A DNA stretch of 64,000 nucleotides from Escherichia coli (GTDB taxonomy: Bacteria > Pseudomonadota > Gammaproteobacteria > Enterobacterales > Enterobacteriaceae): NCBI RefSeq assembly GCF_051903065.1, contig NZ_CP178438.1; one strand, written 5' to 3'. The position numbers and the translations under genes were made by a program. Below are positions 9,288-27,195 of the stretch, one piece after another (position 1 is the first letter of the stretch; each line of letters starts with the position of its first letter). The notes beneath the pieces were generated by a model. It searched no databases. It worked only from the letters and a program-made list of their open reading frames with translations, and had not been told where the DNA came from.

Positions 9288-10136
9288 TCATGCTTTGTCT
9301 GGTTGCCAGCCTTCCGTATACCAGATATGCAACAGCGCATAAGAACGCCAGGGCTTCCAGCGTTCAGCATAACGGCGGATTTGTGCCGGTGTCATTCCCG
9401 GAAATCGCTGTTTAATCAGATAATCATCCGGCAGGAAAACATCTTTCGCCTGCCAGCCACGCAAAGCGAAATAATTCGCCGTCCAGCGCCCGATACCCGG
9501 AAAAGTTTGCAGCGTTTTCATCGCCTGCTCCACATCGCCCGGAATTGTCATTGGTAAGCTGCCCTCCAGCGCCGCATTTGCCAGATGAATCAGTGCCTCT
9601 GCCCGTTTCAACGGCATGCCTAACGCTTTTAATGCCTGCGGGTCGGCTGCTGCCAGCCGCTGAGGCGTGGGGAAGCAGATATACTCCGGAAAATCATCCA
9701 GCCGTTCGCCATAAAGCTGTGCCACTCTGGCGGTCAATTTTGCCGCCATCGCCACGCTCACCAGTTGGCCTAAAATCGCCCGCACGCCCTGCTCAAAAGC
9801 ATCAACACTGCCGGGTAAACGCAATCCGGGCCGCGCCGCGCCTAACTTGCCCAACGCACCGTTAACAATCTGCGGGTTACATTGCAGATCAAGCAGGCGG
9901 CTCATTTTCGCCAGACACTCAGCGGCAACGGGTTCTAAATCTGCACTTAAATTTATGTGCAGAGTATGGCGGGCTATATCCGGAATAGCAGTCACCACGC
10001 CGCGATATTCGCCCACCGCCAGACTACGGGCATAATAATCGTCAGCGACCGTTTCCACACCACTCACTGCACGGGCGGCGAGAAATCCCAACATCCACGA
10101 CCAGTCATACGGCGGCTGCCAGTTCAGGGTATACAT
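9288..10136 (-). CDS. alkA: 3-methyladenine DNA glycosylase II, 282 aa
   Basis: 282-aa ORF recognised as AlkA (HhH-GPD fold, e.g. LQTFPGIGRWTANYFALRG). Confidence 0.9.
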   Translation of the reverse strand: MYTLNWQPPYDWSWMLGFLAARAVSGVETVADDYYARSLAVGEYRGVVTAIPDIARHTLHINLSADLEPVAAECLAKMSRLLDLQCNPQIVNGALGKLGAARPGLRLPGSVDAFEQGVRAILGQLVSVAMAAKLTARVAQLYGERLDDFPEYICFPTPQRLAAADPQALKALGMPLKRAEALIHLANAALEGSLPMTIPGDVEQAMKTLQTFPGIGRWTANYFALRGWQAKDVFLPDDYLIKQRFPGMTPAQIRRYAERWKPWRSYALLHIWYTEGWQPDKA

Positions 10137-10269
10137 CGCATCTCCTTATTCATCCGCTTTCAGCATAAACGTTATTCAGACGCTGCGCTTTGCTTTCATA
10201 TTCCGGTTGTCGCGACGGCAACATTTCGCTAAAGTCACGCCCCTTCTTCACCGGCATGGGGATTATTTC

Positions 10270-11622
10270 GTGTTTATTGGTTTTGATTACGGTACAGCAA
10301 ACTGTTCAGTGGCGGTCATGCGTGACGGTAAACCGCACTTGCTAAAAATGGAAAACGACAGCACGCTGCTGCCTTCAATGCTTTGCGCGCCAACGCGTGA
10401 AGCGGTAAGCGAATGGCTGTACCGCCATCATGATGTTCCGGCAGACGACGATGAAACGCAGGCGCTGTTACGTCGGGCGATTCGTTATAACCGTGAAGAA
10501 GATATCGATGTTACGGCGAAAAGCGTGCAGTTCGGTCTTTCCTCACTGGCACAGTACATTGATGATCCGGAAGAAGTGTGGTTTGTGAAATCACCAAAAT
10601 CGTTCCTCGGTGCCAGCGGCTTAAAACCGCAGCAGGTAGCGCTGTTTGAGGATCTGGTCTGCGCAATGATGTTGCACATTCGCCAGCAGGCGCAGGCACA
10701 GCTGCCAGAAACGATTACTCAGGCGGTGATCGGTCGCCCGATCAACTTCCAGGGGCTTGGCGGCGATGAAGCAAACACCCAGGCGCAGGGGATTCTGGAA
10801 CGCGCGGCGAAGCGTGCCGGGTTTAAGGATGTGGTATTCCAGTACGAGCCGGTCGCGGCTGGGCTGGATTACGAAGCCACCTTGCAGGAAGAAAAACGGG
10901 TGCTGGTGGTGGATATCGGCGGTGGTACGACTGACTGTTCATTGCTGCTGATGGGGCCGCAGTGGCGTTCGCGTCTCGATCGTGAAGCCAGCCTGCTGGG
11001 TCACAGTGGTTGCCGTATTGGCGGTAACGATCTGGATATCGCGCTGGCGTTTAAAAACCTGATGCCGTTACTGGGCATGGGTGGCGAAACCGAAAAAGGC
11101 ATCGCCCTGCCGATTCTGCCGTGGTGGAATGCGGTTGCCATCAACGACGTACCTGCGCAGAGTGATTTCTACAGTAGTGCCAACGGTCGTCTGCTTAACG
11201 ATCTGGTACGCGATGCCCGCGAACCGGAAAAAGTGGCCCTGTTACAGAAAGTCTGGCGTCAGCGTTTAAGCTATCGCCTGGTGCGTAGCGCAGAAGAGTG
11301 CAAAATTGCTCTTTCAAGCGTAGCGGAAACCCGCGCCTCACTGCCGTTTATCAGCGATGAACTGGCTACGCTGATTAGCCAGCAAGGGCTGGAAAGCGCC
11401 CTCAGCCAGCCACTGGCGCGGATTCTGGAACAGGTGCAACTGGCGCTGGATAACGCCCAGGAAAAACCGGACGTTATCTACCTGACCGGCGGAAGCGCCC
11501 GTTCTCCGCTGATTAAAAAAGCGCTGGCAGAACAGTTGCCGGGCATTCCGATTGCAGGCGGCGATGACTTTGGCTCCGTCACCGCCGGGCTGGCACGCTG
11601 GGCGGAAGTGGTGTTTCGTTAA
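10270..11622 (+). CDS. yegD: Hsp70-family (actin-like ATPase) protein YegD, ~450 aa
   Basis: Phosphate-1 motif IGFDYGTANCSVAV directly follows a GTG at 10270; there is no in-frame ATG just upstream of this conserved N-terminus, so the track's upstream extension to 10207 is unlikely to be the real start. Confidence 0.8.
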   Translation: MFIGFDYGTANCSVAVMRDGKPHLLKMENDSTLLPSMLCAPTREAVSEWLYRHHDVPADDDETQALLRRAIRYNREEDIDVTAKSVQFGLSSLAQYIDDPEEVWFVKSPKSFLGASGLKPQQVALFEDLVCAMMLHIRQQAQAQLPETITQAVIGRPINFQGLGGDEANTQAQGILERAAKRAGFKDVVFQYEPVAAGLDYEATLQEEKRVLVVDIGGGTTDCSLLLMGPQWRSRLDREASLLGHSGCRIGGNDLDIALAFKNLMPLLGMGGETEKGIALPILPWWNAVAINDVPAQSDFYSSANGRLLNDLVRDAREPEKVALLQKVWRQRLSYRLVRSAEECKIALSSVAETRASLPFISDELATLISQQGLESALSQPLARILEQVQLALDNAQEKPDVIYLTGGSARSPLIKKALAEQLPGIPIAGGDDFGSVTAGLARWAEVVFR

Positions 11623-11634
11623 TTGAAAAATGGC

Positions 11635-13584
11635 TCAGCAGCGGCTTAAATCTGCCTGCGCCTGAGCCAGTTTTTCTGCCGCCTGACGTAACGGTTCCAT
11701 CAACGGCATGGTCCGTGCTGGAGCATGAAGGCGGAATCGCTGCAACTCTGTCGCGCCGACAGTCAACGCCGATTCCAGCCGATGTCGTTTGGCGGCCATT
11801 TTCGCCATTACCGCTTGTCTTTCTGCAGGCGTTACCGCTTCGTTCGGCCTGAACACAAAACGGCGTTCACAGCTCGCTTTCCAGTCGATGACCGCCTGGG
11901 TCAGATGATCACCAAACCCTTTAACTTGCTTAACCCCACGACGGGTAACATCCGCGGCTGTTTCAATACCAAAAGACCGTAACGCCGCTTTACGCGCAGG
12001 GCCAACGCCGGGAATAGAGGCAGCATCAATAAAAAATCCCTCCAGAAACTTCTGCTTCTGCCGTTCCCTTGCAGTGTCGTGAAGTGCTGCCAGAGCACGT
12101 TTTTCTTCTTCCGGTAACCCGAGAATTTCGTCCTTCATTTTTTCGAGCATCGTCCGTTTGGCGATAAAACCTTCCAGCCCGCCCAACTGTTGGATCTGGT
12201 TGACTAAATGGTCATAGTCCATTTTCGCGCGATTAAATGCCTCACGGCGTTGCTGGATTTCTGCTTTATAAGCTTTGCTTGTCAGACTGCCAATAATCCA
12301 GATAGCCGCCAGCACAGGAACCAAAATAATATAACGCGGTTCTGCCTGAAGGCCGCAAAGCAACAGCGATAACGCTGACAGTGCGATCTCAATCAGAATG
12401 ATGTATTCGCGCCGTAACAGGCCTAAAGGAAGCGGCCTGCCAGTCGGTTGGAAATGATCGGGTAATGGCAATTGCAATGCTGGCGGTGCTACTGACGCCA
12501 TCACCATCGCCCAGACTTTCGCCAGCACAAAATCACCGCCGGTGGTAATGACCTCTTCACCGAGATCAATAAAATAGATAACGCCTTGATTATCCAGCGT
12601 ACACCACGGGCAGTCAGTCAAATGAGCGGGGTAAACATGCATTGCTGAAACGGTACATTTCTTTAACTGTTGGCGTAGAGAGTCCAGTGCCGCTACCCAC
12701 GCTTTAGCCGTCGGACGCCCCGTTGCCACGCCACTTTCCGTGAATGCCTGCTGAAACATGGCTTCAACATCGCCCGGTAACATCGACAGCGGAATAGATC
12801 GTGGCGGCGGTTTTAAACCACGCCGCTGATTATCTGACGCGTAGGCATAACGGAAATGGGCAATATCCGTCTCCAGCGCATTACCCGCATCAGAGATAAG
12901 CGGCACACCAGAATAAGGATGCCGCCCACCAAACAAGACGTGAAAAATCAGCAACGCAAGGCCAAAATTATCGTGATTTTCTGTGCGTTCAAAACCGACA
13001 AATGATGGCAAGGTTTGTAGCTCTGGCGGCGTAAAATGCGACACGCCAACTTCGCATAAATGCAACGTTCCATTGGCGTTAATCTGAAAGGAGTCGCTGT
13101 CGATCAACACCACTTTGCTGTCGCGACCTACCATAAAGCTGTTCTGGTTTACGTCACCCACGACGTGCCCGTGCTCGTGAACCGTAGCAAAAGATGAAGC
13201 AATATTACGCGCAACATAGAGTAGAAAATCCCACGCACAATGAGGGTAACTCTGGCGACGATGTGCCGGGCTATAGATCATATGAATCGGTTCTTTACCA
13301 GAAACTTTTGGCATCATAAAACCGATAACTTTTCCGCCTCGTCCACCGTGAAGCGTTGCCTGCGGCCAGGCGACATAATTCAGCAACTGTGCATCAGCTG
13401 TCGCAGCCATAAAGGCAAGTTTGTCCTGTTTTAAGGCGGGTGGCGGCGTGTGATAAATCTTAGCGACGCTATCGACAAACTCCTCGATATCATAAACCGC
13501 GCCTTCGCCACCTTTGCCCAGTTCACGGCCTGGCGTAACGCACTCACCAGTAGCAGTATATAAAGTGGGTTTCATGGTAACCAC
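11635..13584 (-). CDS. yegI: Membrane-anchored eukaryotic-like Ser/Thr protein kinase YegI with C-terminal tandem helix-hairpin-helix motifs, ~648 aa
   Basis: Gly-rich loop GKGGEGAVY and VAKIY lysine motif; two hydrophobic helices mid-protein; C-terminal IPGVGPARKAALRSFG and VKGFGDHLTQ HhH-like motifs. Alternative start 3 codons downstream (MKPTLY). Confidence 0.8.
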   Translation of the reverse strand: MVTMKPTLYTATGECVTPGRELGKGGEGAVYDIEEFVDSVAKIYHTPPPALKQDKLAFMAATADAQLLNYVAWPQATLHGGRGGKVIGFMMPKVSGKEPIHMIYSPAHRRQSYPHCAWDFLLYVARNIASSFATVHEHGHVVGDVNQNSFMVGRDSKVVLIDSDSFQINANGTLHLCEVGVSHFTPPELQTLPSFVGFERTENHDNFGLALLIFHVLFGGRHPYSGVPLISDAGNALETDIAHFRYAYASDNQRRGLKPPPRSIPLSMLPGDVEAMFQQAFTESGVATGRPTAKAWVAALDSLRQQLKKCTVSAMHVYPAHLTDCPWCTLDNQGVIYFIDLGEEVITTGGDFVLAKVWAMVMASVAPPALQLPLPDHFQPTGRPLPLGLLRREYIILIEIALSALSLLLCGLQAEPRYIILVPVLAAIWIIGSLTSKAYKAEIQQRREAFNRAKMDYDHLVNQIQQLGGLEGFIAKRTMLEKMKDEILGLPEEEKRALAALHDTARERQKQKFLEGFFIDAASIPGVGPARKAALRSFGIETAADVTRRGVKQVKGFGDHLTQAVIDWKASCERRFVFRPNEAVTPAERQAVMAKMAAKRHRLESALTVGATELQRFRLHAPARTMPLMEPLRQAAEKLAQAQADLSRC

Positions 13585-14333
13585 AGCGCCAGTGCCAACG
13601 TTTTATCATCATCGGTACGCTCGTTTACCGCCGGGCTGGACAAAAACTGCTTTAACAATTCAGGTAATAAATCGAGCTGTTCCTGCGTTGCTGCCGCCAG
13701 TCCATTGAAAAAAGGGGTAAAGAAAGGCACATGCGGAGAATTATCCAACATATTTAACGCCAGTCGCTGGATACCATCCGTAAATGCTGCAACTTTATGC
13801 ACACGCTCAGTGCTGGTGAAAGTTTCCAGTCTGGAAACAGCATCTTCATCGCTAATGAAATGCGTCATATTGGCATATTCACCCACCATCGGCGTGAGCG
13901 GCAGTTCCAGACCACGACCAAAATCCACCACTACACCGCCGTCGCCAATTTGCATAATCAATGTGCCGTTAGCCGATGAAATCAATCCCAGAAACGTGCA
14001 GGCAAAATCGCGAACTGCTAATGCTTTGGCTTCTGCCTCGGCAAAAAGTCGTTGACGAATGGTCAGTACCATATTTGTGGCGAGGACATCATTAAGCCCC
14101 AATTCACCGTCCTGTACTTTTTGCACCATAAACGCCATCGCTTCATTGACGGCGAGCTTCGCGCCTTCTCCTCCCTGCGAAACGCTACCTGCGCCATCAG
14201 CAAGGAACATCACCAGTAATGGCTGCTGGTCATTTAGCCAGGCAACCTGCATCTGGCAGGCATCCTGACAAGGTAAATCAGCGCTAATGTGCGACGTTCC
14301 AACAGCGGATGCATAAACCAGACGCCAGCTCAC
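13572..14333 (-). CDS. yegK: PP2C-family Ser/Thr phosphatase YegK, 253 aa
   Basis: 253-aa ORF, stop overlaps the yegI start by 13 nt; PP2C-like Asp-rich motifs ([15 protein letters not shown]). Confidence 0.8.
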
Positions 14334-14989
14334 ACTGACGTCCAGCCTTTTGGCGCTTCCAGCACAACTTCCGTTCCCGGCGTGGAGCGGGAAACCGAAC
14401 GCAGCGAACTGGATAACCAGCTAAACAGTTCACGGAATTGTAATCCCTGCAGTGGCAAAGGCTGACGAACGCTGATTTGTGCCAGAGTCTTCATATCCGC
14501 CCCCTGAACACCGATGGAAAAGAAGGCAAACTTCTTATCTTCTTCCCCCTGAAACACTTTGTTGGCGGCAGCCTGCCACTCATCGGTTGGTGCACCATCG
14601 GTGATTAGGAAAATCCACGGGCGATAATACGAAATACCATTTGCGCGGTACTCACGTTTCCTCTTTTCAACCATATCCAGGGCTTTGGTAATGGCGGCCC
14701 CCATAGGCGTATCCCCTTGGGCAAACAGGATGGGCGGGAAAAAGTTAGCGGCGCTGGTAAAGGGTTGTTCCACATGCACCGGGCCGAACGTCACAATGCC
14801 GAGTTCCACTCTTTTTAAAGCCAGCGGATCAGCAAGCAGTTCATCACGAAAGGTAACCAATCCGGCGTTAAGTTCATTAATGGGTCTACCGTTCATCGAA
14901 CCAGAAACATCCAGCAGCAGAATGCAGGGGCAACGTGGTTCCGGGTTACTGGCAGAATCGCTGGTGGCAAACATGATTTGTTCGCTCAT
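14330..14989 (-). CDS. yegL: von Willebrand factor A (vWA) domain protein YegL, 219 aa
   Basis: MIDAS motif DVSGS (DxSxS) near the N-terminus; 4-nt ATGA overlap with yegK indicates an operon yegL-yegK-yegI. Confidence 0.8.
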
Positions 14990-15170
14990 AAGAAATCATT
15001 TCTTAGAGAATTATTGAGGTCCGGTATCATACCGACTGCAATAATGAAATAAGAGCAAACGAAGAAACTTTCAGAATTAGTCCCGGCGGCGCAGAAAATT
15101 TTGCTATTCGCCTCGCAAGAACGGAGAGCCGTCGATTGACACTAAGGGCGGAGTGACATAATTTCAGGAG

Positions 15171-15310
15171 TGAGGGTTAGGGAAAGGTTTCCCCCTCCCC
15201 CTGGTGTTCTTAGTAAGCCTGGAAGCTAATCACTAAGAGTATCACCAGTATGATGACGTGCTTCATCATAACCCTTTCCTTATTTAAGGCCCCTTCCTCG
15301 GGAGGGGCTT
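15171..15310 (+). ncRNA. sibA: SibA antitoxin sRNA, antisense to ibsA (ends approximate)
   Basis: Sigma70 promoter TTGACA (15136-15141), 17-nt spacer, TAATTT (15159-15164). Transcript fully overlaps ibsA on the opposite strand and ends at a GC hairpin plus T-rich tract near 15285-15310. Confidence 0.6.
15210..15269 (-). CDS. ibsA: Type I toxin IbsA, 19-aa hydrophobic peptide MMKHVIILVILLVISFQAY
   Basis: Hand-translated minus-strand ORF; too short for the ORF track. Matches the Ibs toxin family. Confidence 0.75.
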   Translation of the reverse strand: MMKHVIILVILLVISFQAY

Positions 15311-15504
15311 TCCCGTTTCAGCATCCCGCTGAAATCGTCGGCTTACCTCCTTTCGCCATGCATGCAGTCTATCGCTGACTTGCGGATAAAATAGTTTCCA
15401 GTGTGATTATTGCGTAACGTCTCGCAAAGAATATTTGCTGGCAGGATCGCAGACTGCAAAGCCTGCAGATTGACAATCTGACCGTGAAGGCATACTTTCA
15501 GGAG

Positions 15505-15640
15505 TGAGGGTTGAGCGGGGTTTCCCCCGCCCTGGTAGTCTTAGTAAGCTGGCCAGCTAATGACTAAGAGCACCACGATGATGAGTAGCTTCATCATGAC
15601 CCTTTTCTTATTAAAGGATGACAAAATAATACAAATCACT
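15505..15640 (+). ncRNA. sibB: SibB antitoxin sRNA, antisense to ibsB (ends approximate)
   Basis: Second copy of the Sib repeat. Promoter TTGACA (15470-15475), 17-nt spacer, TACTTT (15493-15498). Overlaps ibsB. Confidence 0.55.
15541..15597 (-). CDS. ibsB: Type I toxin IbsB, 18-aa hydrophobic peptide MMKLLIIVVLLVISWPAY
   Basis: Hand-translated minus-strand ORF in the second Sib/Ibs repeat unit. Confidence 0.75.
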   Translation of the reverse strand: MMKLLIIVVLLVISWPAY

Positions 15641-15763
15641 TAAAAATCATCGCATTACACGAATTTGCGGTTAAATAATAGACTACAAAGTGCGACAAAA
15701 CGCAACATATGCAGTCACTATGAATCAACTACTTAGATAGTACTAGTGACCTGTAACAGAGCA

Positions 15764-15806
15764 TTAGCGCAAGGTGATTTTTTGTCCTCTTGCGCTAATT
15801 TTTTGT
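15764..15806 (+). terminator. Candidate rho-independent terminator
   Basis: 10-bp inverted repeat TTAGCGCAAG / CTTGCGCTAA (15764-15773 / 15789-15798) followed by TTTTTTG. The 15-nt loop is long, so confidence is moderate. Confidence 0.4.
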
Positions 15807-15961
15807 CATCAAACATGTCGTTCTCCAGAGAAGCATAAAGCCTTGCAATCAAGTGCAAAGCTTTGTGTACCAGAGTTTTTCCTCATCAACTACCACAAGT
15901 ATCGATCGATTGAGACTTGGATGATAGACTTCATGCCTTTCAGAACTCATTGATTACATAA

Positions 15962-16324
15962 ATGTTAAAGCTATTTGCAAAGTACACCTCGATTGGTGTG
16001 CTGAACACACTTATACACTGGGTGGTTTTTGGTGTATGTATCTATGCCGCGCATACCAATCAGGCTCTGGCAAACTTCTCAGGTTTCGTTGTGGCTGTGA
16101 GCTTTAGCTTCTTCGCGAATGCAAAATTCACATTCAAAGCATCGACTACAACGATGCGCTACATGTTATATGTCGGGTTCATGGGAACACTGAGTGCTAC
16201 TGTTGGATGGGCTGCTGATAAGTGCTCGCTTCCTCCAATTATCACTCTTATCACCTTCTCCGCCATCAGCCTGGTGTGCGGTTTCGTCTATTCAAAGTTC
16301 ATTGTCTTTAGGGATGCGAAATGA
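15962..16324 (+). CDS. gtrA: GtrA-family bactoprenol-glucose flippase, 120 aa
   Basis: 120-aa four-helix membrane protein; near-identical to phage P22/SfV-type GtrA as I recall it ([20 protein letters not shown]...). Confidence 0.9.
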
Positions 16325-17241
16325 AAATATCTCTGATTGTTCCTGTCTTCAATGAAGAAGATGCGATACCAATTTTCTATAAAACGGTACGTGAATTCGA
16401 AGAGTTGAAGCCTTATGACGTCGAAATTGTATTCATAAATGACGGAAGCAAAGACGCCACGGAATCAATTATTAACGTTCTGGCTGTTTCAGATCCGCTA
16501 GTTGTTCCGCTGTCATTTACACGAAACTTTGGTAAAGAACCAGCATTGTTTGCAGGGTTAGACCATGCAACGGGCGATGCTGTTATTCCTATTGATGTTG
16601 ACCTGCAAGACCCGATTGAGGTTATTCCTCATCTGATTGAAAAGTGGCAGGCAGGTGCCGATATGGTGCTGGCAAAACGTTCAGATCGTTCAACTGATGG
16701 AAGATTAAAACGGAAAACCGCTGAGTGGTTCTATAAGCTTCACAATAAAATAAGCAATCCAAAGATTGAAGAGAATGTCGGCGATTTCCGCCTGATGTCT
16801 CGAGAGGTGGTAGAAAATATCAAACTACTGCCAGAGCGTAACCTGTTTATGAAAGGCGTTTTATCTTGGGTTGGCGGTAAGACGGATGTTGTTGAATACA
16901 TCCGTGCTGAACGCGTTGCCGGAAGCACAAAATTCAATGGCTGGAAGCTATGGAACCTGGCGCTTGAGGGAATTACAAGTTTCTCGACCTTCCCCTTACG
17001 CGTGTGGACTTACATCGGCCTACTTGTTGCGGGACTCTCGTTCCTTTACGGGGTGTGGATGATTTTCGACACATTGGTGTTCGGTAATGCTGTCCGCGGA
17101 TATCCTTCTATTCTTGTATCTATTCTCTTTTTAGGTGGCATTCAGTTAATTGGTATTGGGGTGCTGGGAGAATACATCGGCAGAATTTACGTAGAAGTTA
17201 AAAATCGTCCTAGATATGTACTTAAAAAAATAAAAGGTTAG
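16321..17241 (+). CDS. gtrB: GtrB bactoprenol glucosyltransferase (GT2 family), 306 aa
   Basis: GT2 motifs (DGSKDAT, DVDLQD) and C-terminal TM helices; 4-nt overlap with gtrA. Confidence 0.9.
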
Positions 17242-17246
17242 AGAAT

Positions 17247-18623
17247 ATGCGCATTTCAAAAAATGAAAAATACCTTTCATTGATTATGATAGCATTTTAC
17301 TTGCCATTTTTATTATCTGATTTACCTTTTAGGGACGATCTAAGCAGGACTTATTGGGGTTTTGTTGGGTTGTCTCAATTAGGTAGACCATTGGCAGACA
17401 TTGTTTATAGTTTGGTTGGATTTGGCTATGAGGGTGTTAACCTCAGCCCTATGCCTAAAATTATAGCGCTATTAATAATATTATCGTCTGCGATATTTTC
17501 ATACAGAACGCTATTCAACTCAATAGGAGCAACCGGGTTACTCTCTTTATCTATTTTCTTTGCAAATCCATTTATTATTCAAAATTTTGCATATCAGTAC
17601 GACTGTTTTCCAATGGCTTTATCTATTTTATTGGCGACATTATCTGTATTATATAGACCAAGATCAAGCTATTTTTATTTTCTTAGCGCATCATTTTTAT
17701 TAACTAGCGCAATATCACTTTATCAAGCATCTATATTTATTGCGGCATCTTTATATTTATGTAAGATCACTATTTATTTCGTTAACGATAGAAATCGCAG
17801 AGATGTTTTTATAGAATGCATGCTTACTCTTTTGTCTTCTTTTTTCTCTATTGCATGTTACATGGTGATTTTACTTTTTGTAGAAAATGGCGTGTCAAAA
17901 CGAGCTAGCATTACAGGGCCAAGTGGCGTTATTAGCAATATCGAGTTCCTTTTGGATAGGTTAAATAGCCTTTACCACTCGGTTTATATTTTTTTTATTA
18001 TTTTGTCATTAGTATTAATATTCTCTCTCTTGAGGATTTTTATCCTAAAAAGATATATCAATTTATGCGTGATATTACTAATACTTGTTGCGCTGCTAGT
18101 CTCTTCCCTACTCCCATCTGTCATCCTTAAGGAAGGGTTCGCCGGACCAAGAGTTTTAATGTCTATTTGTTCGGTATTTATATTTATATCTATCATTGCA
18201 ACCGGAAAAGAAAAATACGTATACGCCATGGTGTTATCTGTTTTAATGATGCATTCCATGTCTATTTCATACGCATTTTCAGGTGACATTAAGGCACAAT
18301 ACGATAGATACTCGATGATATCATCTCTTGTTTATAAAGATATTGATAATTACGTGTCGTCAAATACAGCAAAAATATACATTTCTTGCAAATCAACCCC
18401 ATCACAAAGAGAGTACGTTTTCTATAAATTCAACAATCACATAGCATGGCTCAACCCAGAAGAGGCTTGGGCTATCAGGTTTTTCATAAGAAATAATGGC
18501 GAGAGCAGGGTGGTGCACTCATGGGATGAATGCTTTGATATAAATGGAGGTAAGATCGTTAAAGAAAATGCATTTTATAAAATGGTTGAAAATAAAAATT
18601 CTTACTATTTCATAATGAAATAA
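17247..18623 (+). CDS. gtrC: GtrC-type serotype-specific O-antigen glucosyltransferase (polytopic membrane protein), 458 aa
   Basis: Third gene of a gtr operon; highly hydrophobic and AT-rich with strong codon bias relative to its neighbours, typical of horizontally acquired gtrC-type genes. Target specificity cannot be called from sequence. Confidence 0.7.
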   Translation: MRISKNEKYLSLIMIAFYLPFLLSDLPFRDDLSRTYWGFVGLSQLGRPLADIVYSLVGFGYEGVNLSPMPKIIALLIILSSAIFSYRTLFNSIGATGLLSLSIFFANPFIIQNFAYQYDCFPMALSILLATLSVLYRPRSSYFYFLSASFLLTSAISLYQASIFIAASLYLCKITIYFVNDRNRRDVFIECMLTLLSSFFSIACYMVILLFVENGVSKRASITGPSGVISNIEFLLDRLNSLYHSVYIFFIILSLVLIFSLLRIFILKRYINLCVILLILVALLVSSLLPSVILKEGFAGPRVLMSICSVFIFISIIATGKEKYVYAMVLSVLMMHSMSISYAFSGDIKAQYDRYSMISSLVYKDIDNYVSSNTAKIYISCKSTPSQREYVFYKFNNHIAWLNPEEAWAIRFFIRNNGESRVVHSWDECFDINGGKIVKENAFYKMVENKNSYYFIMK

Positions 18624-18630
18624 ATATAGG

Positions 18631-18662
18631 CGGGGGGGGGGGTAACAATCCCCCGTCTTTTT
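18631..18662 (+). terminator. Rho-independent terminator after gtrC
   Basis: CGGGGGGGGGGG-TAACAAT-CCCCCG hairpin (G11 run pairing with C5) followed by TCTTTTTT. Confidence 0.6.
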
Positions 18663-18849
18663 TGCTACGGCAAGTGATTAATCGCAACAATTGATTATTA
18701 TTTATAACAAATGCGTCATCTACCGCTATTCGGGTGACATTTTCATTCCTTATCTAAAATACAATTAAATAATTAACAAATAATTAAACGAATTGCATGA
18801 AAAATACATTACCGAAAAGTTAGAATAGTGTGCGATTGAAAGTTAATAA

Positions 18850-21381
18850 CTATATAACGGATAGCGTTCTTATGTCATTGCTAGCTGGTGATGCCATAAC
18901 TATCTGTGTTACGTTAGCGCCAGACACCGTATACGTCAGAATTACGTTACCAACGGCTCCTATATTAAAGTTTTGTTTAGCTCCTGAGGTACCTATAGCT
19001 CTGGCATTCGTTAAAGTATACGTGCTTCCCGCAGTGAATCCTGTAGCAATTACAAATTGTTGACCAACTTTAAAAGGAACTGTCATTGTTGCGGATGTTG
19101 ACTCGACAGTAGCAAACGGCAGGCCAGGCTGTTTAACCCCCGTCACATCCCAGAACTCACAGTTACGCACCAATGCTCGACCAATTAAATCGCGAGTTAC
19201 AGGGAATGTTGTCTGGTCCTGTGATAAGAATGCTCCAACAATTTGCACGTTATCGAGCGTAATATCGTGTACTGTGGCCCCATCTATAGGACTTAACGTT
19301 GGTGATGCACTCCATAATTTACCACCCTTCATTTTGATACTTACAGGCCCGTTAGGGTCTGTCCCTCTAAAAGCGCGAATACTCTCAAATTTGCAATCTG
19401 TAAATTCATAGCTGCCGCGTTGGTTAGTTTCGAACAATGTATACGCCTCACCTGACACTCCGTGTCTTACATCACTGGCAACAACGCGCGGATTATGGCG
19501 GAATGATGCAGACGTGACAGAGAAAAATGGCGCGCAGACATCGTTAATAAGAATGTCTGTTGTATAACGCCCTGTAACAGCGCTCTCAGAGTCACTCATA
19601 TCCGAATATAGCGCTTTGAAGCGGGAGAAGTCTATGTTTAGACCTATTCCTGCACTTTTTGGTAATTGTCCAAAATCAAGCCCGTCAATAACAATTTTCT
19701 TAGGGAAATAAAGGGTGTTATCTCGAGCTACAGTTATTAATGTACCCGGATAAGTCAAGACGAAACCTGGATACATTTTAACATCTTTCAAGGTAACATT
19801 ATTGAATAACGTGGGGCTTATAGGCGACCCGCTACTAGGCCCTTGCCCAGCAGTAACAGCTGCGTTTATGATACCATTTCCGGGTGCGCCGCTGCGCAGG
19901 CCAGTTAACTTAATATTCTCCATGTATAAATCACCATCGAAGCCCCCCCCCAGCGTCAGAGCGAGTCGAAATAATATTACCAGGCTTATATGGTGAAGCA
20001 TTAAATATTGAATTGGTTACATACAAATCCCCGATACCAGAAGCGACGACACCATAAGTCCCAATATTACAGTCATTTATCTTTAAGTAGTTTTGGAAAG
20101 GTCTGTGGAAATCAATTCGACTAAGATCGCATCTTTCAAACCTTATATTGGCGCAATTATTGCTGCCTGTTGCCCCCCAGCCTTTACCATTTGCCGTTGC
20201 GTTTTTGATAGTGACATCCATAGAGTTAGATAGGGTTAAGGCGTATGCGTAGCTATCAACACCATCTATTAAGGCGTTTGCTATGGCTGGCGTGTATAAA
20301 CCATCAACTGTAACATCATAGCTTTCGTTAATTTCTATCCTGATATCATTAAAGTTTTGCGTTATCGGTCTGTTAATAAATGTCGTATTAACCAAGCGAA
20401 CTCGTGATGCTTGATTAATATAAATAATTCGATAATTCTTTGTAAGACTTTCGTCTATAGTCAATCCCTTAAGGTCTGCACATCTTTGCGTATTTTAAGT
20501 GCTTTAATTGATGTTGCGTTAGTTCCTAGGGCGTACTTAAGCGGGTTTTCAATGTATCCACGGTTATATACCCTGTTGAAATCTACGCGAGTTTGATTAA
20601 CGCCATCGAAAATAAACATAGGTTGAGATGTCGATAACTGAATGAAGCAACCGTCAAGGTCGGTATTAGAAGCCAAACCATCAAGATAGTTGCTACCTAT
20701 GTCGCGAGAGCCACTGGTGGACGTATTAACTCCATTAACTGGAGCCGAACCAGAACCGTATGTAACAGGGGCGACAGGCTGGCTAATAACAATTTGCCCT
20801 TTCCATGTAGCCGATGGTTTAAGCACACACCCGGTTAAATCCACATTTAAACTTTTAATATCAAGATAAGTATCACCATCTAGTAGAAAAGTTCCGTCAG
20901 ATTGCCTAACGTCTAAATTATTTGAATAAGCATAGTTCAGTGCCTTAGCTATGGCGGGAGCGTCATTTGTTACTCCATCACCAATAGCGCCAAACTCCTT
21001 CAACGTTACCCAGTATTTTACTTTCTCCAAGCTCTTTTGATATTGATCTGGGTCGTACTTCAGCACATTAGGAAAATAGAACTGCTGCGCACCATATGCA
21101 TCATAAACAGCCATAGAGTGGCCTTGCACAGTTACGAACTTGGCAATCTGTCCGTTATATACCGGATATCCAGCAGCGTTAATGATGATTGGTTGTGAAA
21201 CAGGAACGTGAGAACCATCCTCATTCTCCACATAAATCTGAATCTGGTTTTCAGGATTTACCGGGTCAGTGTCAATTTTTCCTATATAAATTTTGCCATT
21301 GGCAACCGCTTTAAAAGAACGTGCCATAGTGAAGAGTTGCGAAGGCATGCTTACCACAACATTTGCGGTGATATCTGTCAT
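18850..21381 (-). pseudogene. P22-like phage tailspike gene broken into three reading-frame segments (306 + 177 + 383 aa)
   Basis: The N-terminal ~120 aa ([34 protein letters not shown]...VLKYDPDQY) is the conserved P22-family tailspike head-binding domain. Downstream segments are beta-helix-like. Frames switch near 20461-20464 and at a G9 run (C9 on + strand, 19943-19951). Confidence 0.7.
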
Positions 21382-21438
21382 TTAATTTGCTCCAGATTCA
21401 AGGAATCGCCGCAGCATGGCTACGGTGAATTTTGTGCA

Positions 21439-21462
21439 TAAAAAACCCAGCCGAAGCTGGGT
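21439..21462 (-). terminator. Candidate rho-independent terminator upstream of the tailspike gene
   Basis: On the minus strand: CCCAGC-TTCG-GCTGGG hairpin followed by TTTTTTAT. Confidence 0.4.
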
Positions 21463-21522
21463 CGTTGCGTTGGTTATCTGTAAGTAGTTATGTGCTTAGG
21501 TAATTTGTATTAGCTCAGACCT

Positions 21523-22690
21523 GATCTGACAGTTACCGGTTATTTATACAGGTATCTGTCAGATTACATCCGGCTTAAATTTTTCTCGGCCCAGATGCGC
21601 TTTCCATCAAGTAACGTTTCCATTGGCGTCCGCCCATTGCGCATTTTTCCCTGATGGGTTCGTTCATTATTATAGTGAGCCAGCCACTCATCAAGATCCG
21701 ATTGCAATGTATCGAGAGCTCCATACAACTTTTTACGGAACGTCACCTGATAAAATTCGTTCAGTATCGTCTTATGGAACCGCTCGCAGATGCCATTTGT
21801 CTGCGGTGACATCGCTTTAGTTTTCGTGTGGTCTATATCATTTATTGCCAGATATAGCTGGTAGTCATGCTGTTCCACCTTACCGCAGTACTCTGTTCCT
21901 CTGTCGGTCAGTATTCTCAGCATTGGCAGGTTTTGCGATTCGTAAAATGGCAACACACGATCATTCAGCAGGTCAGCAGCCGTGATCGGTGTTTTGGTTA
22001 CATACAGTTTACAGTGTGCGACCTTCGAGTAGGTGTCAACGAACGTTTGCTGATAAATGCGTCCGACTCCTTTCAGATTACCCACGTAGAACGTATCCTG
22101 AGAGCCCAGATAACCGGGATGTGCGGTTTCGATTTCACCACACGCTTCGTCATCGCTGGCTTTACGCTCCAGAACGACTATCTGTGCTTCTGTCAGCTCG
22201 ATACCGTCACGGGCTACTTTTTCCTCCAGTGCTTTCAGCCGCTTTTTGAAGTTCTCAAGGTTATGCCGCAGCCAGACAGAACGTACACCCCTTCCTGAGA
22301 TGAAGACACCTTGCTTACGTAGCTCATTGCTGGTCCGGTGCTGGCCATGCGCAGGGTACGCGATGGCATAATCAACAACGGCCCGCTCAGTTGCATCATC
22401 GGTACGATTTTTTAGATTGGGCGTTCGTCGAGTGCGGTTAATCAGTGCATCCACCCCACCTTCATCAGCCAGTTCGCGATAACGGTAAAACGTATCACGC
22501 GAGACGCCCATGATTTTGCAGGCCTTCGAAACATTGCGGAGTTCTTCAGCCAGATTGAGCAAACCGGCTTTGTGTTTGATGACGGGATTGTTAGTATGAA
22601 GCATGAGAGTTACCTCGTGTTTTGTATAAGGATTCGACACCCATATCAAAACCGGTAACTCTCAACCTTTCAAGGCTCAGTGTCAGATCA
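21523..22690 (-). mobile_element. IS481-family insertion sequence (~1.17 kb)
   Basis: Terminal inverted repeats TGATCTGACA at 21523-21532 and, as reverse complement, 22681-22690. Single DDE transposase gene inside. No obvious target-site duplication. Confidence 0.6.
21564..22604 (-). CDS. IS481-family DDE (rve) transposase, ~346 aa
   Basis: N-terminal HTH region plus rve-type catalytic core ending in the IS481-family signature SPQTNGICERFHKTI. Start taken at MLHTNN; the track ORF begins 15 codons upstream at 22649. Confidence 0.75.
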   Translation of the reverse strand: MLHTNNPVIKHKAGLLNLAEELRNVSKACKIMGVSRDTFYRYRELADEGGVDALINRTRRTPNLKNRTDDATERAVVDYAIAYPAHGQHRTSNELRKQGVFISGRGVRSVWLRHNLENFKKRLKALEEKVARDGIELTEAQIVVLERKASDDEACGEIETAHPGYLGSQDTFYVGNLKGVGRIYQQTFVDTYSKVAHCKLYVTKTPITAADLLNDRVLPFYESQNLPMLRILTDRGTEYCGKVEQHDYQLYLAINDIDHTKTKAMSPQTNGICERFHKTILNEFYQVTFRKKLYGALDTLQSDLDEWLAHYNNERTHQGKMRNGRTPMETLLDGKRIWAEKNLSRM

Positions 22691-22755
22691 AGTCGCGACT
22701 AATACATGTACCCGTCATTCAGACGATTCCCGACAGTGTTTCATAATTCCTCCAT

Positions 22756-22773
22756 TTTTCTCCCTTATTGGCT
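22756..22773 (+). promoter_or_regulatory. BaeR-binding box in the mdtA promoter
   Basis: TTTTTCTCCCTTATTGGC matches the BaeR consensus TTTTTCTCCATDATTGGC as I recall it, ~55 bp upstream of the mdtA start and ~65 bp from the IS481-family end. Confidence 0.55.
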
Positions 22774-22825
22774 GGCTACACTAGTATCATTCCGCGAAAC
22801 GTTTCAGGAAGAGAAACTCTTAACG

Positions 22826-24073
22826 ATGAAAGGCAGTTATAAATCCCGTTGGGTAATCGTAATCGTGGTGGTTATCGCCGCCATCGCCGCATTCTGGTTC
22901 TGGCAAGGCCGCAATGACTCCCAGAGTGCAGCCCCAGGGGCGACGAAACAAGCGCAGCAATCGCCAGCGGGTGGTCGCCGTGGTATGCGTTCCGGCCCAT
23001 TAGCCCCGGTTCAGGCGGCGACCGCCGTAGAACAGGCAGTTCCGCGTTACCTTACCGGGCTTGGCACCATTACCGCTGCTAACACCGTTACGGTGCGCAG
23101 CCGCGTAGATGGTCAGTTGATGGCGTTACATTTCCAGGAAGGCCAGCAGGTCAAAGCAGGCGATTTACTGGCAGAAATTGACCCCAGCCAGTTCAAAGTT
23201 GCATTAGCACAAGCCCAGGGCCAACTGGCAAAAGATAAAGCCACGCTTGCCAACGCCCGCCGTGACCTGGCGCGTTATCAACAACTGGTAAAAACCAATC
23301 TCGTATCTCGTCAGGAACTGGATGCCCAACAGGCGCTGGTCAGTGAAACCGAAGGCACCATTAAGGCTGATGAAGCAAGCGTCGCCAGCGCGCAGCTGCA
23401 ACTCGACTGGAGCCGCATCACCGCACCAGTCGATGGTCGCGTTGGTCTCAAGCAGGTTGATGTTGGTAACCAAATCTCCAGTGGTGATACCACCGGGATT
23501 GTGGTGATCACCCAGACGCATCCTATCGATTTGCTCTTTACCCTGCCGGAAAGCGATATCGCTACCGTCGTGCAGGCGCAGAAATCCGGAAAACCGCTGG
23601 TGGTAGAAGCCTGGGATCGCACCAACTCGAAGAAATTAAGTGAAGGCACGCTGTTAAGCCTCGATAACCAAATCGATGCCACAACCGGTACGATTAAAGT
23701 GAAAGCACGCTTTAATAATCAGGATGATGCGCTGTTTCCCAATCAGTTTGTTAACGCGCGCATGTTAGTCGACACCGAACAAAACGCCGTAGTGATCCCA
23801 ACAGCCGCCCTGCAAATGGGCAATGAAGGCCATTTTGTCTGGGTGCTGAATAGCGAAAACAAGGTCAGCAAACATCTGGTGACGCCGGGCATTCAGGACA
23901 GTCAGAAAGTGGTGATCCGCGCAGGTATTTCTGCGGGCGATCGCGTGGTGACAGACGGCATTGATCGCCTGACCGAAGGGGCGAAAGTGGAAGTGGTGGA
24001 AGCCCAGAGCGCCACCACTCCGGAAGAGAAAGCCACCAGCCGCGAATACGCGAAAAAAGGAGCTCGCTCCTGA
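22826..24073 (+). CDS. mdtA: RND multidrug efflux membrane fusion protein MdtA, 415 aa
   Basis: Start taken at MKGSYKSRW (signal-anchor); the track ORF extends 40 codons upstream. Confidence 0.9.
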
Positions 24074-27000
24074 TGCAGGTGTTACCCCCGAGCAGCACAG
24101 GCGGCCCGTCGCGCCTGTTTATTATGCGTCCTGTGGCCACCACGCTGCTGATGGTGGCGATCTTACTCGCCGGGATTATCGGTTATCGCGCCCTGCCCGT
24201 TTCGGCGCTGCCGGAAGTGGACTATCCGACCATTCAGGTGGTCACGCTCTACCCAGGTGCGAGCCCGGATGTCATGACCTCTGCCGTTACCGCGCCGCTC
24301 GAACGCCAGTTCGGGCAGATGTCTGGCCTGAAACAGATGTCGTCGCAAAGTTCCGGCGGTGCGTCAGTTATCACCTTACAGTTCCAGCTAACATTACCGC
24401 TGGATGTCGCCGAGCAGGAAGTGCAGGCCGCGATTAACGCTGCGACCAACTTGTTGCCGAGCGATCTGCCTAACCCGCCGGTTTACAGCAAAGTGAACCC
24501 GGCAGATCCGCCGATCATGACGCTCGCCGTCACCTCAACCGCCATGCCGATGACGCAAGTGGAAGATATGGTGGAAACCCGCGTCGCGCAGAAAATCTCG
24601 CAGATTTCCGGTGTCGGTCTGGTGACGCTTTCCGGCGGCCAGCGTCCGGCTGTTCGCGTCAAACTTAACGCTCAGGCGATTGCCGCCCTCGGCCTGACCA
24701 GCGAAACCGTGCGAACCGCCATTACCGGCGCTAACGTTAACTCGGCAAAAGGTAGCCTCGACGGCCCTTCCCGTGCGGTCACGCTTTCCGCTAACGACCA
24801 GATGCAATCCGCCGAAGAGTATCGCCAGCTAATCATCGCCTACCAGAACGGCGCGCCGATTCGTCTGGGCGATGTCGCAACTGTAGAGCAAGGTGCAGAA
24901 AACAGCTGGCTCGGCGCGTGGGCGAACAAAGAACAGGCCATTGTGATGAATGTTCAGCGCCAGCCCGGTGCTAACATTATCTCCACCGCCGACAGCATCC
25001 GGCAGATGCTGCCACAGCTCACCGAGAGTTTGCCGAAATCGGTGAAGGTGACGGTACTTTCTGACCGTACCACCAATATCCGCGCATCCGTCGACGATAC
25101 CCAGTTTGAGCTGATGATGGCTATCGCGCTGGTAGTCATGATTATCTACCTGTTTTTGCGCAATATTCCGGCGACCATCATTCCCGGTGTTGCCGTGCCG
25201 CTGTCGTTAATCGGCACTTTTGCGGTTATGGTGTTTCTCGATTTTTCAATCAATAACCTGACGCTGATGGCGTTAACTATCGCCACCGGGTTCGTGGTCG
25301 ATGACGCCATCGTGGTGATCGAAAATATTTCCCGCTATATCGAAAAAGGCGAAAAACCGTTGGCGGCGGCGCTCAAGGGCGCAGGTGAAATCGGCTTTAC
25401 CATTATCTCGCTGACCTTCTCACTGATTGCGGTGTTGATCCCACTGCTGTTTATGGGCGATATCGTCGGGCGACTGTTCCGCGAATTTGCTATTACCCTG
25501 GCGGTAGCGATTTTGATCTCAGCGGTGGTGTCGCTGACCCTGACACCGATGATGTGCGCGCGGATGCTCAGCCAGGAGTCGCTGCGTAAACAGAACCGCT
25601 TCTCCCGTGCCTCGGAGAAAATGTTCGACAGGATAATCGCCGCCTATGGACGTGGACTGGCGAAAGTGCTGAATCATCCGTGGCTGACCTTAAGCGTGGC
25701 GCTCAGCACGCTGCTGCTTAGCGTTCTATTGTGGGTGTTCATTCCGAAAGGTTTCTTCCCGGTACAGGACAACGGCATTATTCAGGGCACTTTGCAGGCA
25801 CCGCAATCCAGCTCCTTTACCAATATGGCCCAGCGGCAACGCCAGGTCGCGGACGTGATTTTGCAGGATCCGGCAGTGCAAAGTCTGACCTCATTTGTTG
25901 GCGTTGATGGCACTAACCCGTCGCTGAACAGTGCGCGTTTACAGATCAACCTCAAACCGCTGGATGAACGTGATGATCGGGTGCAAAAAGTCATCGCCCG
26001 TCTGCAAACGGCGGTGGATAAAGTGCCGGGCGTCGATCTCTTCCTGCAACCAACGCAGGACCTGACCATCGATACTCAGGTCAGCCGCACCCAGTACCAG
26101 TTTACCTTGCAGGCCACGTCACTGGATGCGCTCAGTACCTGGGTGCCACAGTTGATGGAAAAACTCCAGCAGCTGCCACAGCTATCTGATGTCTCCAGCG
26201 ACTGGCAGGACAAAGGGCTGGTGGCGTATGTCAATGTTGATCGCGACAGCGCCAGCCGTCTGGGGATCAGCATGGCGGACGTCGATAACGCCCTGTACAA
26301 CGCGTTTGGTCAGCGGCTGATTTCCACTATTTATACTCAGGCTAACCAGTATCGCGTGGTGCTGGAGCACAACACCGAAAATACCCCAGGGCTTGCGGCG
26401 CTGGATACCATTCGCCTTACCAGCAGCGACGGCGGCGTGGTGCCGTTAAGCTCAATTGCCAAAGTTGAACAGCGTTTTGCGCCGCTTTCCATCAACCATC
26501 TGGATCAGTTCCCGGTAACGACCATCTCTTTTAACGTGCCAGATAACTATTCGCTGGGCGATGCGGTGCAGGCGATTATGGACACCGAAAAGACGCTGAA
26601 TCTGCCGGTGGATATCACCACGCAGTTCCAGGGCAGCACCCTCGCCTTCCAGTCGGCGCTGGGCAGCACTGTCTGGCTGATTGTCGCGGCGGTGGTGGCG
26701 ATGTATATCGTGCTCGGCATTCTGTACGAGAGCTTTATTCACCCGATCACCATTCTCTCGACGCTACCCACCGCAGGGGTCGGCGCGCTGCTGGCGTTAA
26801 TGATTGCCGGTAGCGAACTGGATGTGATTGCGATTATCGGCATTATTTTGCTGATCGGTATCGTGAAGAAGAACGCCATCATGATGATCGACTTCGCGCT
26901 GGCTGCTGAGCGCGAGCAAGGCATGTCGCCGCGCGAAGCTATTTACCAGGCTTGTCTGTTGCGTTTTCGTCCGATCCTGATGACCACCCTGGCGGCTCTG

Positions 27001-27195
27001 CTTGGCGCGCTGCCGCTGATGTTGAGTACCGGGGTCGGCGCGGAACTGCGTCGTCCGTTAGGTATCGGCATGGTCGGCGGCCTGATTGTCAGCCAGGTGC
27101 TGACGCTGTTTACCACGCCGGTGATTTATTTGCTGTTCGACCGCCTGGCATTGTGGACCAAAAGCTGCTTTGCCCGTCATGAAGAGGAGGCGTAA
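24073..27195 (+). CDS. mdtB: RND efflux transporter MdtB, 1040 aa
   Basis: 1040-aa 12-TM RND permease; start overlaps the mdtA stop. Confidence 0.9.

Follow-up and report, generated by a model that had tools for sequence, protein, structure and literature searches.

A P22-like prophage remnant with a gtrABC operon and a broken tailspike gene at the sibB/ibsB locus of Escherichia coli

The stretch analysed here (the window) comprises 64,000 nucleotides of Escherichia coli DNA (NCBI RefSeq assembly GCF_051903065.1, contig NZ_CP178438.1), and all coordinates refer to it. Between the sibB/ibsB toxin-antitoxin locus and the gene mdtA it carries a block of phage-derived DNA, made up of a gtrABC operon of the type that modifies O antigens, a convergent tailspike pseudogene and an insertion sequence (IS) of the IS481 family. 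The flanks of the block (13581-15612 and 22706-24998) are collinear with E. coli K-12 MG1655 in BLAST comparisons, and window positions 15613-22705 stand in place of 143 bp of the K-12 sequence between sibB and mdtA; by the logic of the attachment (att) sites, the foreign DNA itself extends from 15618 to 22706 (~7.09 kb). These limits agree with an earlier note on the same DNA, which had placed a block of ~7 kb, absent from K-12, between sibB/ibsB and mdtA. The GC content of the block is 0.32-0.45, compared with ~0.50-0.60 in the flanks. The open reading frames (ORFs) listed between 13500 and 25000 consist of three co-oriented plus-strand genes, three minus-strand ORFs and a 361-aa minus-strand ORF, followed by mdtA.

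Comparison with 5426 complete E. coli genomes located the whole block in six of them, at the same locus each time and always in serogroup O38. The block is therefore not part of the E. coli core, which disposes of a conserved locus of most E. coli genomes as its explanation. The genome of strain 23CRST027 is 100% identical to the window over 15000-23000, and ECNB21-M121 is another of the carriers. No P22-type virion, ejection, lysis or immunity gene and no integrase was found in 15618-22706, either in the ORF listing or in the annotation, and for this reason the block is a remnant rather than a prophage; the related element of strain BL12 has all of the missing gene classes. Both the reading of the earlier note, an eroded P22-like prophage, and its remark that no integrase and no further phage structural gene remain are upheld by the gene content of the block and by its rarity in E. 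coli. The intact ancestral phage that the note expected from genome comparison was not recovered, as no phage with this gtrC was found in the 5426 genomes, in the phage collection or on contigs encoding the GtrC protein.

The three plus-strand genes have the layout of three-component Gtr systems, with GtrA first, a family 2 GtrB, and a divergent polytopic GtrC immediately downstream, and PHROG and Pfam matches confirm that the gtrA-gtrB-gtrC operon is complete. The first gene, gtrA (15962..16324, plus strand), encodes a predicted undecaprenyl-phosphate-glucose flippase of 120 aa that is matched over 120/120 positions by PHROG 2224 (E 1e-70). It is followed by gtrB (16321..17241, plus strand), encoding a 306-aa family 2 glycosyltransferase (PHROG 841, E 4e-166; PHROG 34335, E 4e-181) with two C-terminal hydrophobic segments. 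The NCBIfam matches of GtrB are all under cut-off and are all to polyprenyl-phosphate sugar transferases, and the protein is predicted to make undecaprenyl-phosphate-glucose. The third gene, gtrC (17247..18623, plus strand), encodes a predicted type-specific glucosyltransferase of 458 aa (Pfam PF14264 Glucos_trans_II, E 5e-31; PHROG 4829), in which at least eight hydrophobic segments are followed, as judged by hydropathy, by a C-terminal domain of ~135 aa. The DNA of gtrC occurs in 6 of the 5426 genomes, all of them carriers of the island. Its product is at most ~34% identical, over partial length, to any GtrC in the phage collection, and the family amounts to 11 clusters in a collection of 5.8 billion proteins: E. 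coli itself, Enterobacter hormaechei (90%), two unnamed clusters (58-59%), Winslowiella (40-45%) and weaker ones. On these comparisons, GtrC appears to be a rare allele with no close characterised relative.

Over the 130 bp ahead of gtrA, the block matches the equivalent sequence of intact prophages such as that of BL12. A single GATC (15904) is present in the region 15618-15961 upstream of gtrA, whereas the regulatory region of P22 has four, and the sites are not conserved in the alignment. P22-type gtr phase variation reportedly uses two GATC pairs upstream of gtrA, a scheme attributed to Broadbent et al. in 2010; phase variation of the P22 style through Dam and OxyR was considered for the operon and rejected, given that a single GATC is present. 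At the other end of the operon, an intergenic terminator hairpin separates the convergent gtrC and tailspike genes (18632..18654, no strand assigned; terminator scan and inter-genome comparison). A run of G within this hairpin (18632-18642) is 11 nt long in the window but 18 nt long in strain 33F4, a variation in length that is due either to real slippage or to homopolymer sequencing error.

The tailspike gene (18850..21381, minus strand) is a pseudogene, with a product of 843 aa when its frame is repaired. It is read as three minus-strand ORF pieces (18850-20001, 19931-20464 and 20461-21381) that are collinear with intact homologues and map consecutively on PHROG 16586 (positions 230-429, 432-609 and 607-956). 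The repaired protein consists of a P22/Sf6-type head-binding domain (residues 1-118), a beta-helix (122-571) and a C-terminal region (572-843). The head-binding domain matches Pfam Head_binding (PF09008, E 2e-66) over model positions 1-113 of 113, and the PDB matches of the N-terminus include the Sf6 gene 14 protein at 9e-65 and the P22 tailspike at 5e-54. The P22-family ancestry of this domain, recognised at first inspection, is thus confirmed; the accompanying view that a receptor-binding protein had survived has to be given up, as the gene is broken by two frameshifts. The first (20462..20481, minus strand) is a 1-nt deletion at ~20472 that turns VQT-IKGLTIDE into VQTLRD*, and it is common to every copy examined, with no inter-genome difference at the position. 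The second lies in a poly-G tract (19943..19951, minus strand; C on the plus strand), which is 9 nt long in the window, as against 8, 10 or 11 nt in further genomes.

Residues 122-571 are homologous to the capsule depolymerase K64-ORF41 of a Klebsiella phage (PDB 8X8M, E 3e-39), a beta-elimination lyase with the catalytic residues Tyr528, His574 and Arg628 (review PMC11652154). When the PDB numbering is corrected for a tag that shifts it by 20 residues, their aligned counterparts in the repaired tailspike are Tyr380, His426 and Arg474, and for this reason lyase chemistry of the receptor-binding domain is plausible; the second frameshift falls just past the aligned Arg474. The likeness to K64-ORF41 is confined to the beta-helix and its aligned catalytic residues, since the N-terminal adaptor and the C-terminal region are different, the likely substrate here is the O38 O antigen rather than the K64 capsule, and the gene in the window is frameshifted. 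Among proteins of the phage collection, the best matches to the receptor-binding domain are 47-58% identical and come from Shigella phage MK-13, Enterobacter phage fGh-Ecl02 and phage Rtp (rtp50), suggesting that the domain is not close to any characterised protein. Together with the divergence of GtrC (at most 34% identity, as against at most 58% for the receptor-binding domain), this sustains the proposal of the earlier note that the gtrC and receptor-binding sequences may have a specificity not yet characterised.

A split tailspike, in which the N-terminal 306-aa piece is still used along with a translationally coupled C-terminal piece to make an active depolymerase or receptor-binding protein, would fit the TTGA overlap of stop codon and possible TTG start created by the first break, and also the single 538-aa ORF that the downstream piece forms when the poly-G tract has 8 or 11 G. 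However, this break lies inside a beta-helix that aligns continuously (122-571) with K64-ORF41, the window has the second frameshift after the aligned catalytic Arg, intact homologues are single proteins of 843 to 859 aa, and no virion is left to carry the protein. A functional split protein is accordingly considered exceedingly improbable.

The right end of the block is formed by the IS481-family element (1201 bp; 21506..22706, minus strand), which was correctly placed from the outset: its 361-aa transposase (21564-22649, minus strand) matches NCBIfam NF033577 with 278.9 bits against a cut-off of 224. The terminal inverted repeats are imperfect 26-nt arms (21506-21531 and 22681-22706) that are 81% complementary. 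No target-site duplication was found around the element, the flanks GGTAATT and TGTACCC being different. On the left it borders phage DNA, whose homology to the BL12 prophage stops at ~21511, and the last 124 bp of this phage DNA contain a terminator hairpin upstream of the tailspike gene (21444..21463, minus strand; terminator scan); its right flank is DNA from upstream of mdtA. Since the element lacks a target-site duplication and abuts the mdtA upstream DNA, an IS-associated deletion has probably removed the rest of the prophage, either as an adjacent deletion or by recombination between two IS copies. Left untouched were mdtA, which starts at 22826, and a sequence in its promoter region (22755..22772, plus strand) that resembles a BaeR box. 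This BaeR-box-like sequence and the start codon of mdtA lie ~50 bp and 120 bp, respectively, downstream of the end of the IS, and outward transcription from the IS could affect expression of mdtABCD-baeSR.

At the left edge, the host DNA flanking the island holds the antitoxin small RNA (sRNA) gene sibA (15136..15284, plus strand; Rfam RF00113, 149 bits) with ibsA opposite to it (15210-15269, minus strand; PGAP annotation of the identical genome), followed by a sibB copy (15470..15617, plus strand; RF00113, 133 bits, Rfam match 15470-15612) with the ibsB ORF on the opposite strand (15541-15597). The two RF00113 matches, together with the Ibs toxins annotated in the identical genome, identify Sib RNAs with opposite-strand ibs ORFs. 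Alignment with K-12 shows that both the native sibB terminator, CCCCTTCCTCGGGAGGGG, and the native upstream region of ibsB have been replaced by phage DNA from 15618 onwards; integration thus detaches the terminator from sibB and the upstream region from ibsB. Alignment of the junctions delimits a 12-bp core with the consensus CCTTATTTAAGG, which reads TCTTATTAAAGG at the attL of the window (15606..15617, plus strand) and CCTTATTTATGG at the attB of K-12. The junctions have the layout ...GACCCTTT-CCTTATTTAAGG-ATGACAAAATAA... at attL, ...GCAACTTA-CCTTATTTAAGG-CCCCTTCCTCGGGAGGGG... at attR and ...CCCTTT-CCTTATTTATGG-CCCCTTCC... at the attB of K-12. On one strand, 8 nt separate the core from the ibsB start codon downstream of it; on the other strand, the core lies immediately 5' of the sibB terminator hairpin. 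ARAGORN detected no tRNA gene within 10000-28000, in keeping with the earlier statement that there is no tRNA attachment site; an attachment site does exist, as the left edge is an attL within sibB.

The same 12-mer is found at the attR of strain RM14723, beside the integrase, and at both attL and attR of a larger remnant that occupies the same site in strain 2018-05-2CC. This latter remnant comprises sibA, sibB', a gtrABC operon whose gtrC is not the one of the window, IS elements, an ead/Ea22-like gene, a partial tyrosine integrase and a further sib/ibs copy, followed by mdtA, and the phage arm after the core at its attL is the same ATGACAAAATAA as in the window. When the integrase 3' end and the sib-type junction were used as query and matches were counted at 80% coverage or more, the integrase 3' end was joined to a sib-type flank in at least 715 of the 5426 genomes. 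All four of the junction loci inspected are beside mdtA, and two of them have an excisionase and a full-length integrase. The integrase is directly followed by mdtA in 82 genomes, and in some others an extra sib copy lies between the att site and mdtA. The sibB site is therefore a much-used integration site of lambdoid and P22-like phages.

These data also bear on the possibility that no phage ever integrated here, and that a prophage fragment was instead brought from elsewhere by the IS481-family element or by homologous recombination. An IS at one edge with no target duplication is what such an import might leave behind, and other strains do have closely related gtr-tailspike modules, at argW, torT and dacD-sbcB. 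Yet the att core on which the sib-site integrase acts coincides exactly with the left junction, and the arm that follows is shared with the attL of the 2018-05-2CC remnant, which keeps both integrase and attR. Also, there is no composite transposon, because the block has a single IS copy. IS-mediated import of the block was rejected on account of the exact attL, and import by either route is regarded as very improbable in comparison with site-specific integration of a phage at sibB.

A search of the available literature found no paper naming sibB/ibsB or the yegL-mdtA interval as a prophage attachment site. Prophage hotspots adjacent to sRNA genes are described as a class in Bobay et al. 2013 (PMC3603311), with ryeB/sdsR of Salmonella and ryeE of E. 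coli as examples. The sibB site shares with this class an att core at the 3' end of an sRNA gene, beside the terminator hairpin, and frequent occupation, and differs in that the target is a type I toxin-antitoxin pair, sibB/ibsB, within a tandem array. The severed ibsB' of the window keeps its Shine-Dalgarno sequence, with phage DNA 8 nt upstream of the start codon, and it may be silent because no promoter-like site was found upstream on its strand in 15618-15700. Between attL and the gtr operon lies a terminator-like hairpin with a U-run (15756..15808, plus strand; RNA fold -24.1 kcal/mol, z = -5.1, with 0/200 shuffles as stable), which is conserved in related prophages (L002, ET665) and could, as its presumed role, stop read-through from SibB' ahead of the operon.

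Of the phages with established gtr genes, P22 (Lederbergvirus) shares with the block the order att, gtrA, gtrB, gtrC and convergent tailspike (gene 9), including the intergenic terminator, as well as ~76% DNA identity in gtrA and gtrB and a homologous head-binding domain (PF09008). In contrast, its GtrC is just ~32% identical over 124 residues, its endorhamnosidase is unrelated to the receptor-binding domain found here, its att site is not sibB, and its remaining genes have no counterpart left in the block. The E. coli-type gtrA/gtrB module is shared with CPS-53 and BL12, and the intact prophage of BL12 encodes a GtrA of identical protein accession. The intact tailspike of BL12, whose P22-like prophage is at argW, is 87% identical end to end to the repaired protein of 843 residues, and BL12 is also O38. 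Unlike the block at sibB, CPS-53 and BL12 have their integrase adjoining gtrA and use a tRNA-Arg gene as att site, and BL12 is a complete prophage with an unrelated GtrC (E 0.012). CPS-53 (KpLE1) is the K-12 remnant with intS-yfdG-yfdH-yfdI at argW. With the Gtr systems of Shigella flexneri (GtrI, II, IV, V and X) and Salmonella, the operon has in common a three-gene layout in which GtrA and GtrB are conserved, whereas the polytopic GtrC, of the Glucos_trans_II family, is divergent; it differs from them in its presumed acceptor, O38 rather than their backbones, and in a GtrC with no close characterised relative. Gtr systems are located at the att-proximal end of temperate phages (review PMC7685785).

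The O-antigen cluster of strain 23CRST027 is annotated with the wzx and wzy genes of O38, and the O38 wzy was detected in 12 of the 5426 genomes. Exactly 11 genomes, each of them among these 12, encode a full-length homologue of the receptor-binding domain: six with the island at sibB, three with a prophage at argW (BL12, GS04 and BHD6) and two with a remnant at dacD-sbcB (DAM and ANT). The association between receptor-binding domain and O38 has a Fisher p of 4e-33, or ~1e-8 if it is counted as three events, the copies at sibB, argW and dacD-sbcB representing three independent insertions, all in O38 backgrounds. In addition, one protein database entry, for a partial GtrC, has the label E. coli O38:H39. 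This host association points to the O38 polysaccharide both as the former ligand of the receptor-binding domain and as the substrate of GtrC; because the host O antigen is O38, we infer that GtrC would add a glucose branch to it. The O38 gene cluster is similar to that of Shigella dysenteriae 8, and strains of the two cross-agglutinate (PMC8795385, PMC6156305).

Taken together, the anatomy and boundaries of the block, the att core, the pseudogene status and rarity described above, the O38 association and the homologies make it likely that a P22-like phage integrated at sibB, that an IS481-associated deletion followed, and that what persists is a gtr operon probably modifying O38, next to a dead tailspike of matching specificity. 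The order of events we infer is as follows. A temperate phage would have integrated by site-specific recombination at the 12-bp core CCTTATTTAAGG at the 3' end of sibB. Later, an IS481-family element would have become the right boundary, and the deletion associated with it would have taken everything from just upstream of the tailspike gene to 143 bp past the sibB terminator, that is ~35 kb of prophage, including attR, xis-int and all genes for virion, lysis, replication and immunity. With xis-int and attR deleted, the element would be immobile. By homology to established Gtr systems, the gtr operon is most likely still working: GtrB would make undecaprenyl-phosphate-glucose, GtrA would flip it to the periplasmic face, and the polytopic GtrC would transfer glucose to one position of the host O-unit, presumably as a side branch of O38. 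Such glucosylation would alter a serological epitope and block adsorption of phages that use O38 as receptor. The tailspike would once have been the matching receptor-destroying enzyme, combining a P22-type adaptor with a lyase-like beta-helix that was probably O38-specific. Expression and activity of the gtr genes, the acceptor sugar, the lyase chemistry and the sequence of these events are the presumptive elements of this reconstruction.

Several observations weigh against this interpretation. A sigma-70 consensus scan upstream of gtrA gave no more sites than shuffled sequence, and the annotated gtr promoter of P22 is not conserved there. Eight copies of the block differ by 3 single nucleotide polymorphisms (SNPs) in gtrABC (2.66 kb) and 7 in the tailspike gene (2.53 kb), which is not a significant difference, and SNP density provides no statistical evidence of selection on gtr within the lineage, the SNPs being too few. 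The six complete carrier genomes may represent one clone, and homopolymer sequencing error could account for part of the poly-G variation in the tailspike gene. A homologue of the receptor-binding domain is missing from one O38 genome, NCTC9038, and a 540-bp fragment of the domain is present in three non-O38 genomes. Finally, a search of the available literature yielded no repeat-unit structure of O38 or S. dysenteriae type 8 in which a free acceptor position for glucose, or the 4-linked uronic acid expected in the substrate of such a lyase, could be recognised. As to the fragment, it corresponds to the 3' end of the tailspike gene (93% identical), is unannotated and lies at dacD-sbcB (e.g. 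strain 2017.06.05CC, L008 7001-7540); this close to the O-antigen locus, it may be the trace of an O-antigen replacement after prophage decay.

Some of these points would equally fit a block of inert, decaying DNA, in which the gtr genes are open for no other reason than that the deletion is recent, and are either unexpressed or no longer acting on the O antigen. The lack of a recognisable promoter and the similar SNP densities of gtr and the decaying tailspike next to it are in line with this, as are the terminator-like hairpin ahead of the operon, which would block read-through from sibB, and the rarity of the block. However, no gtrABC ORF is interrupted in any of the copies compared (which come from Ecuador, China, Switzerland and draft or read-set assemblies), whereas the tailspike gene is broken in all of them, and the sequence directly upstream of gtrA is that of intact prophages. 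Also, gtr operons are classic retained cargo of eroded prophages, as exemplified by CPS-53 in K-12. On balance, inert DNA is judged unlikely, and a retained gtr operon with a role in O38 modification is the preferred interpretation.

The gtr genes and the receptor-binding domain recur together outside E. coli. In a prophage of E. hormaechei, gtrA-gtrB-gtrC-tailspike is collinear with window positions 15899-20997, with 82% DNA identity over 5.1 kb. This prophage is long-tailed, as it has tape-measure, Dit-like and sheath-initiator genes, and its tailspike is 83% identical from residue 122 on, with a Tail_spike_N adaptor instead of the P22 head-binding domain. Because the genes are collinear in spite of the different adaptor, the modifying genes and the receptor-binding domain appear to travel together across phage types and genera, a pattern in keeping with a single glycan as the target of both. 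The cargo beside the receptor-binding domain differs in its other O38-associated copies: in BL12, gtrAB is followed by an unrelated 490-aa protein, and in DAM there are an O-acetyltransferase and a 471-aa protein. As a tentative proposal, which we consider possible without favouring it, GtrC may define an undescribed glucosylated variant of O38 (and of S. dysenteriae type 8), in which case gtrABC and the matching lyase-type domain would form a portable "receptor cassette" moving between podovirus-type and long-tailed phages and between Escherichia and Enterobacter. If so, the glycan specificities of GtrC and of the receptor-binding domain could be read from each other.

The object is of a familiar kind, the end of a grounded P22-like prophage that keeps O-antigen-conversion cargo. 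New are the uncharacterised pair of GtrC and receptor-binding domain tied to O38, the lyase-type fold of the domain, the evidence for movement of the pair as a cassette, and the precise att core in the sibB/ibsB toxin-antitoxin locus. If the gtr operon is active, the O38 lineage, which comes from human, calf and meat sources on three continents, would have a modified O antigen that serotyping by wzx/wzy misses, and antiserum typing and phage susceptibility could both be affected. The link between receptor-binding domain and O38 is also a testable prediction for the depolymerase family to which the MK-13, fGh-Ecl02 and Rtp homologues belong, and the intact tailspikes of BL12 and E. hormaechei could serve as O38-specific reagents. 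Occupied in about one in eight complete E. coli genomes, the sibB/ibsB att site provides a landmark for annotation and an example of phage integration into a type I toxin-antitoxin pair.

Some further observations were made at this site and in its surroundings. A P22-like prophage of strain ET665, located beside torT (L006 5990-6030), has the same arm ATGACAAAATAA right after a junction ending in ...TAAAGG, and related gtr-proximal att arms seem to serve at more than one integration site. The yegL-mdtA interval of some E. coli holds three tandem sib/ibs copies (e.g. L002 19640-20140), as against two in K-12; such three-copy arrays occur with or without a prophage, and the copy number of the toxin-antitoxin array is thus polymorphic. 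Further to the left, yegJ is missing at window positions 13530-13581: K-12 has ~785 bp including yegJ between yegI and pphC, whereas yegI (ending at 11635) and pphC overlap directly here, as they do in the other non-K-12 genomes inspected.

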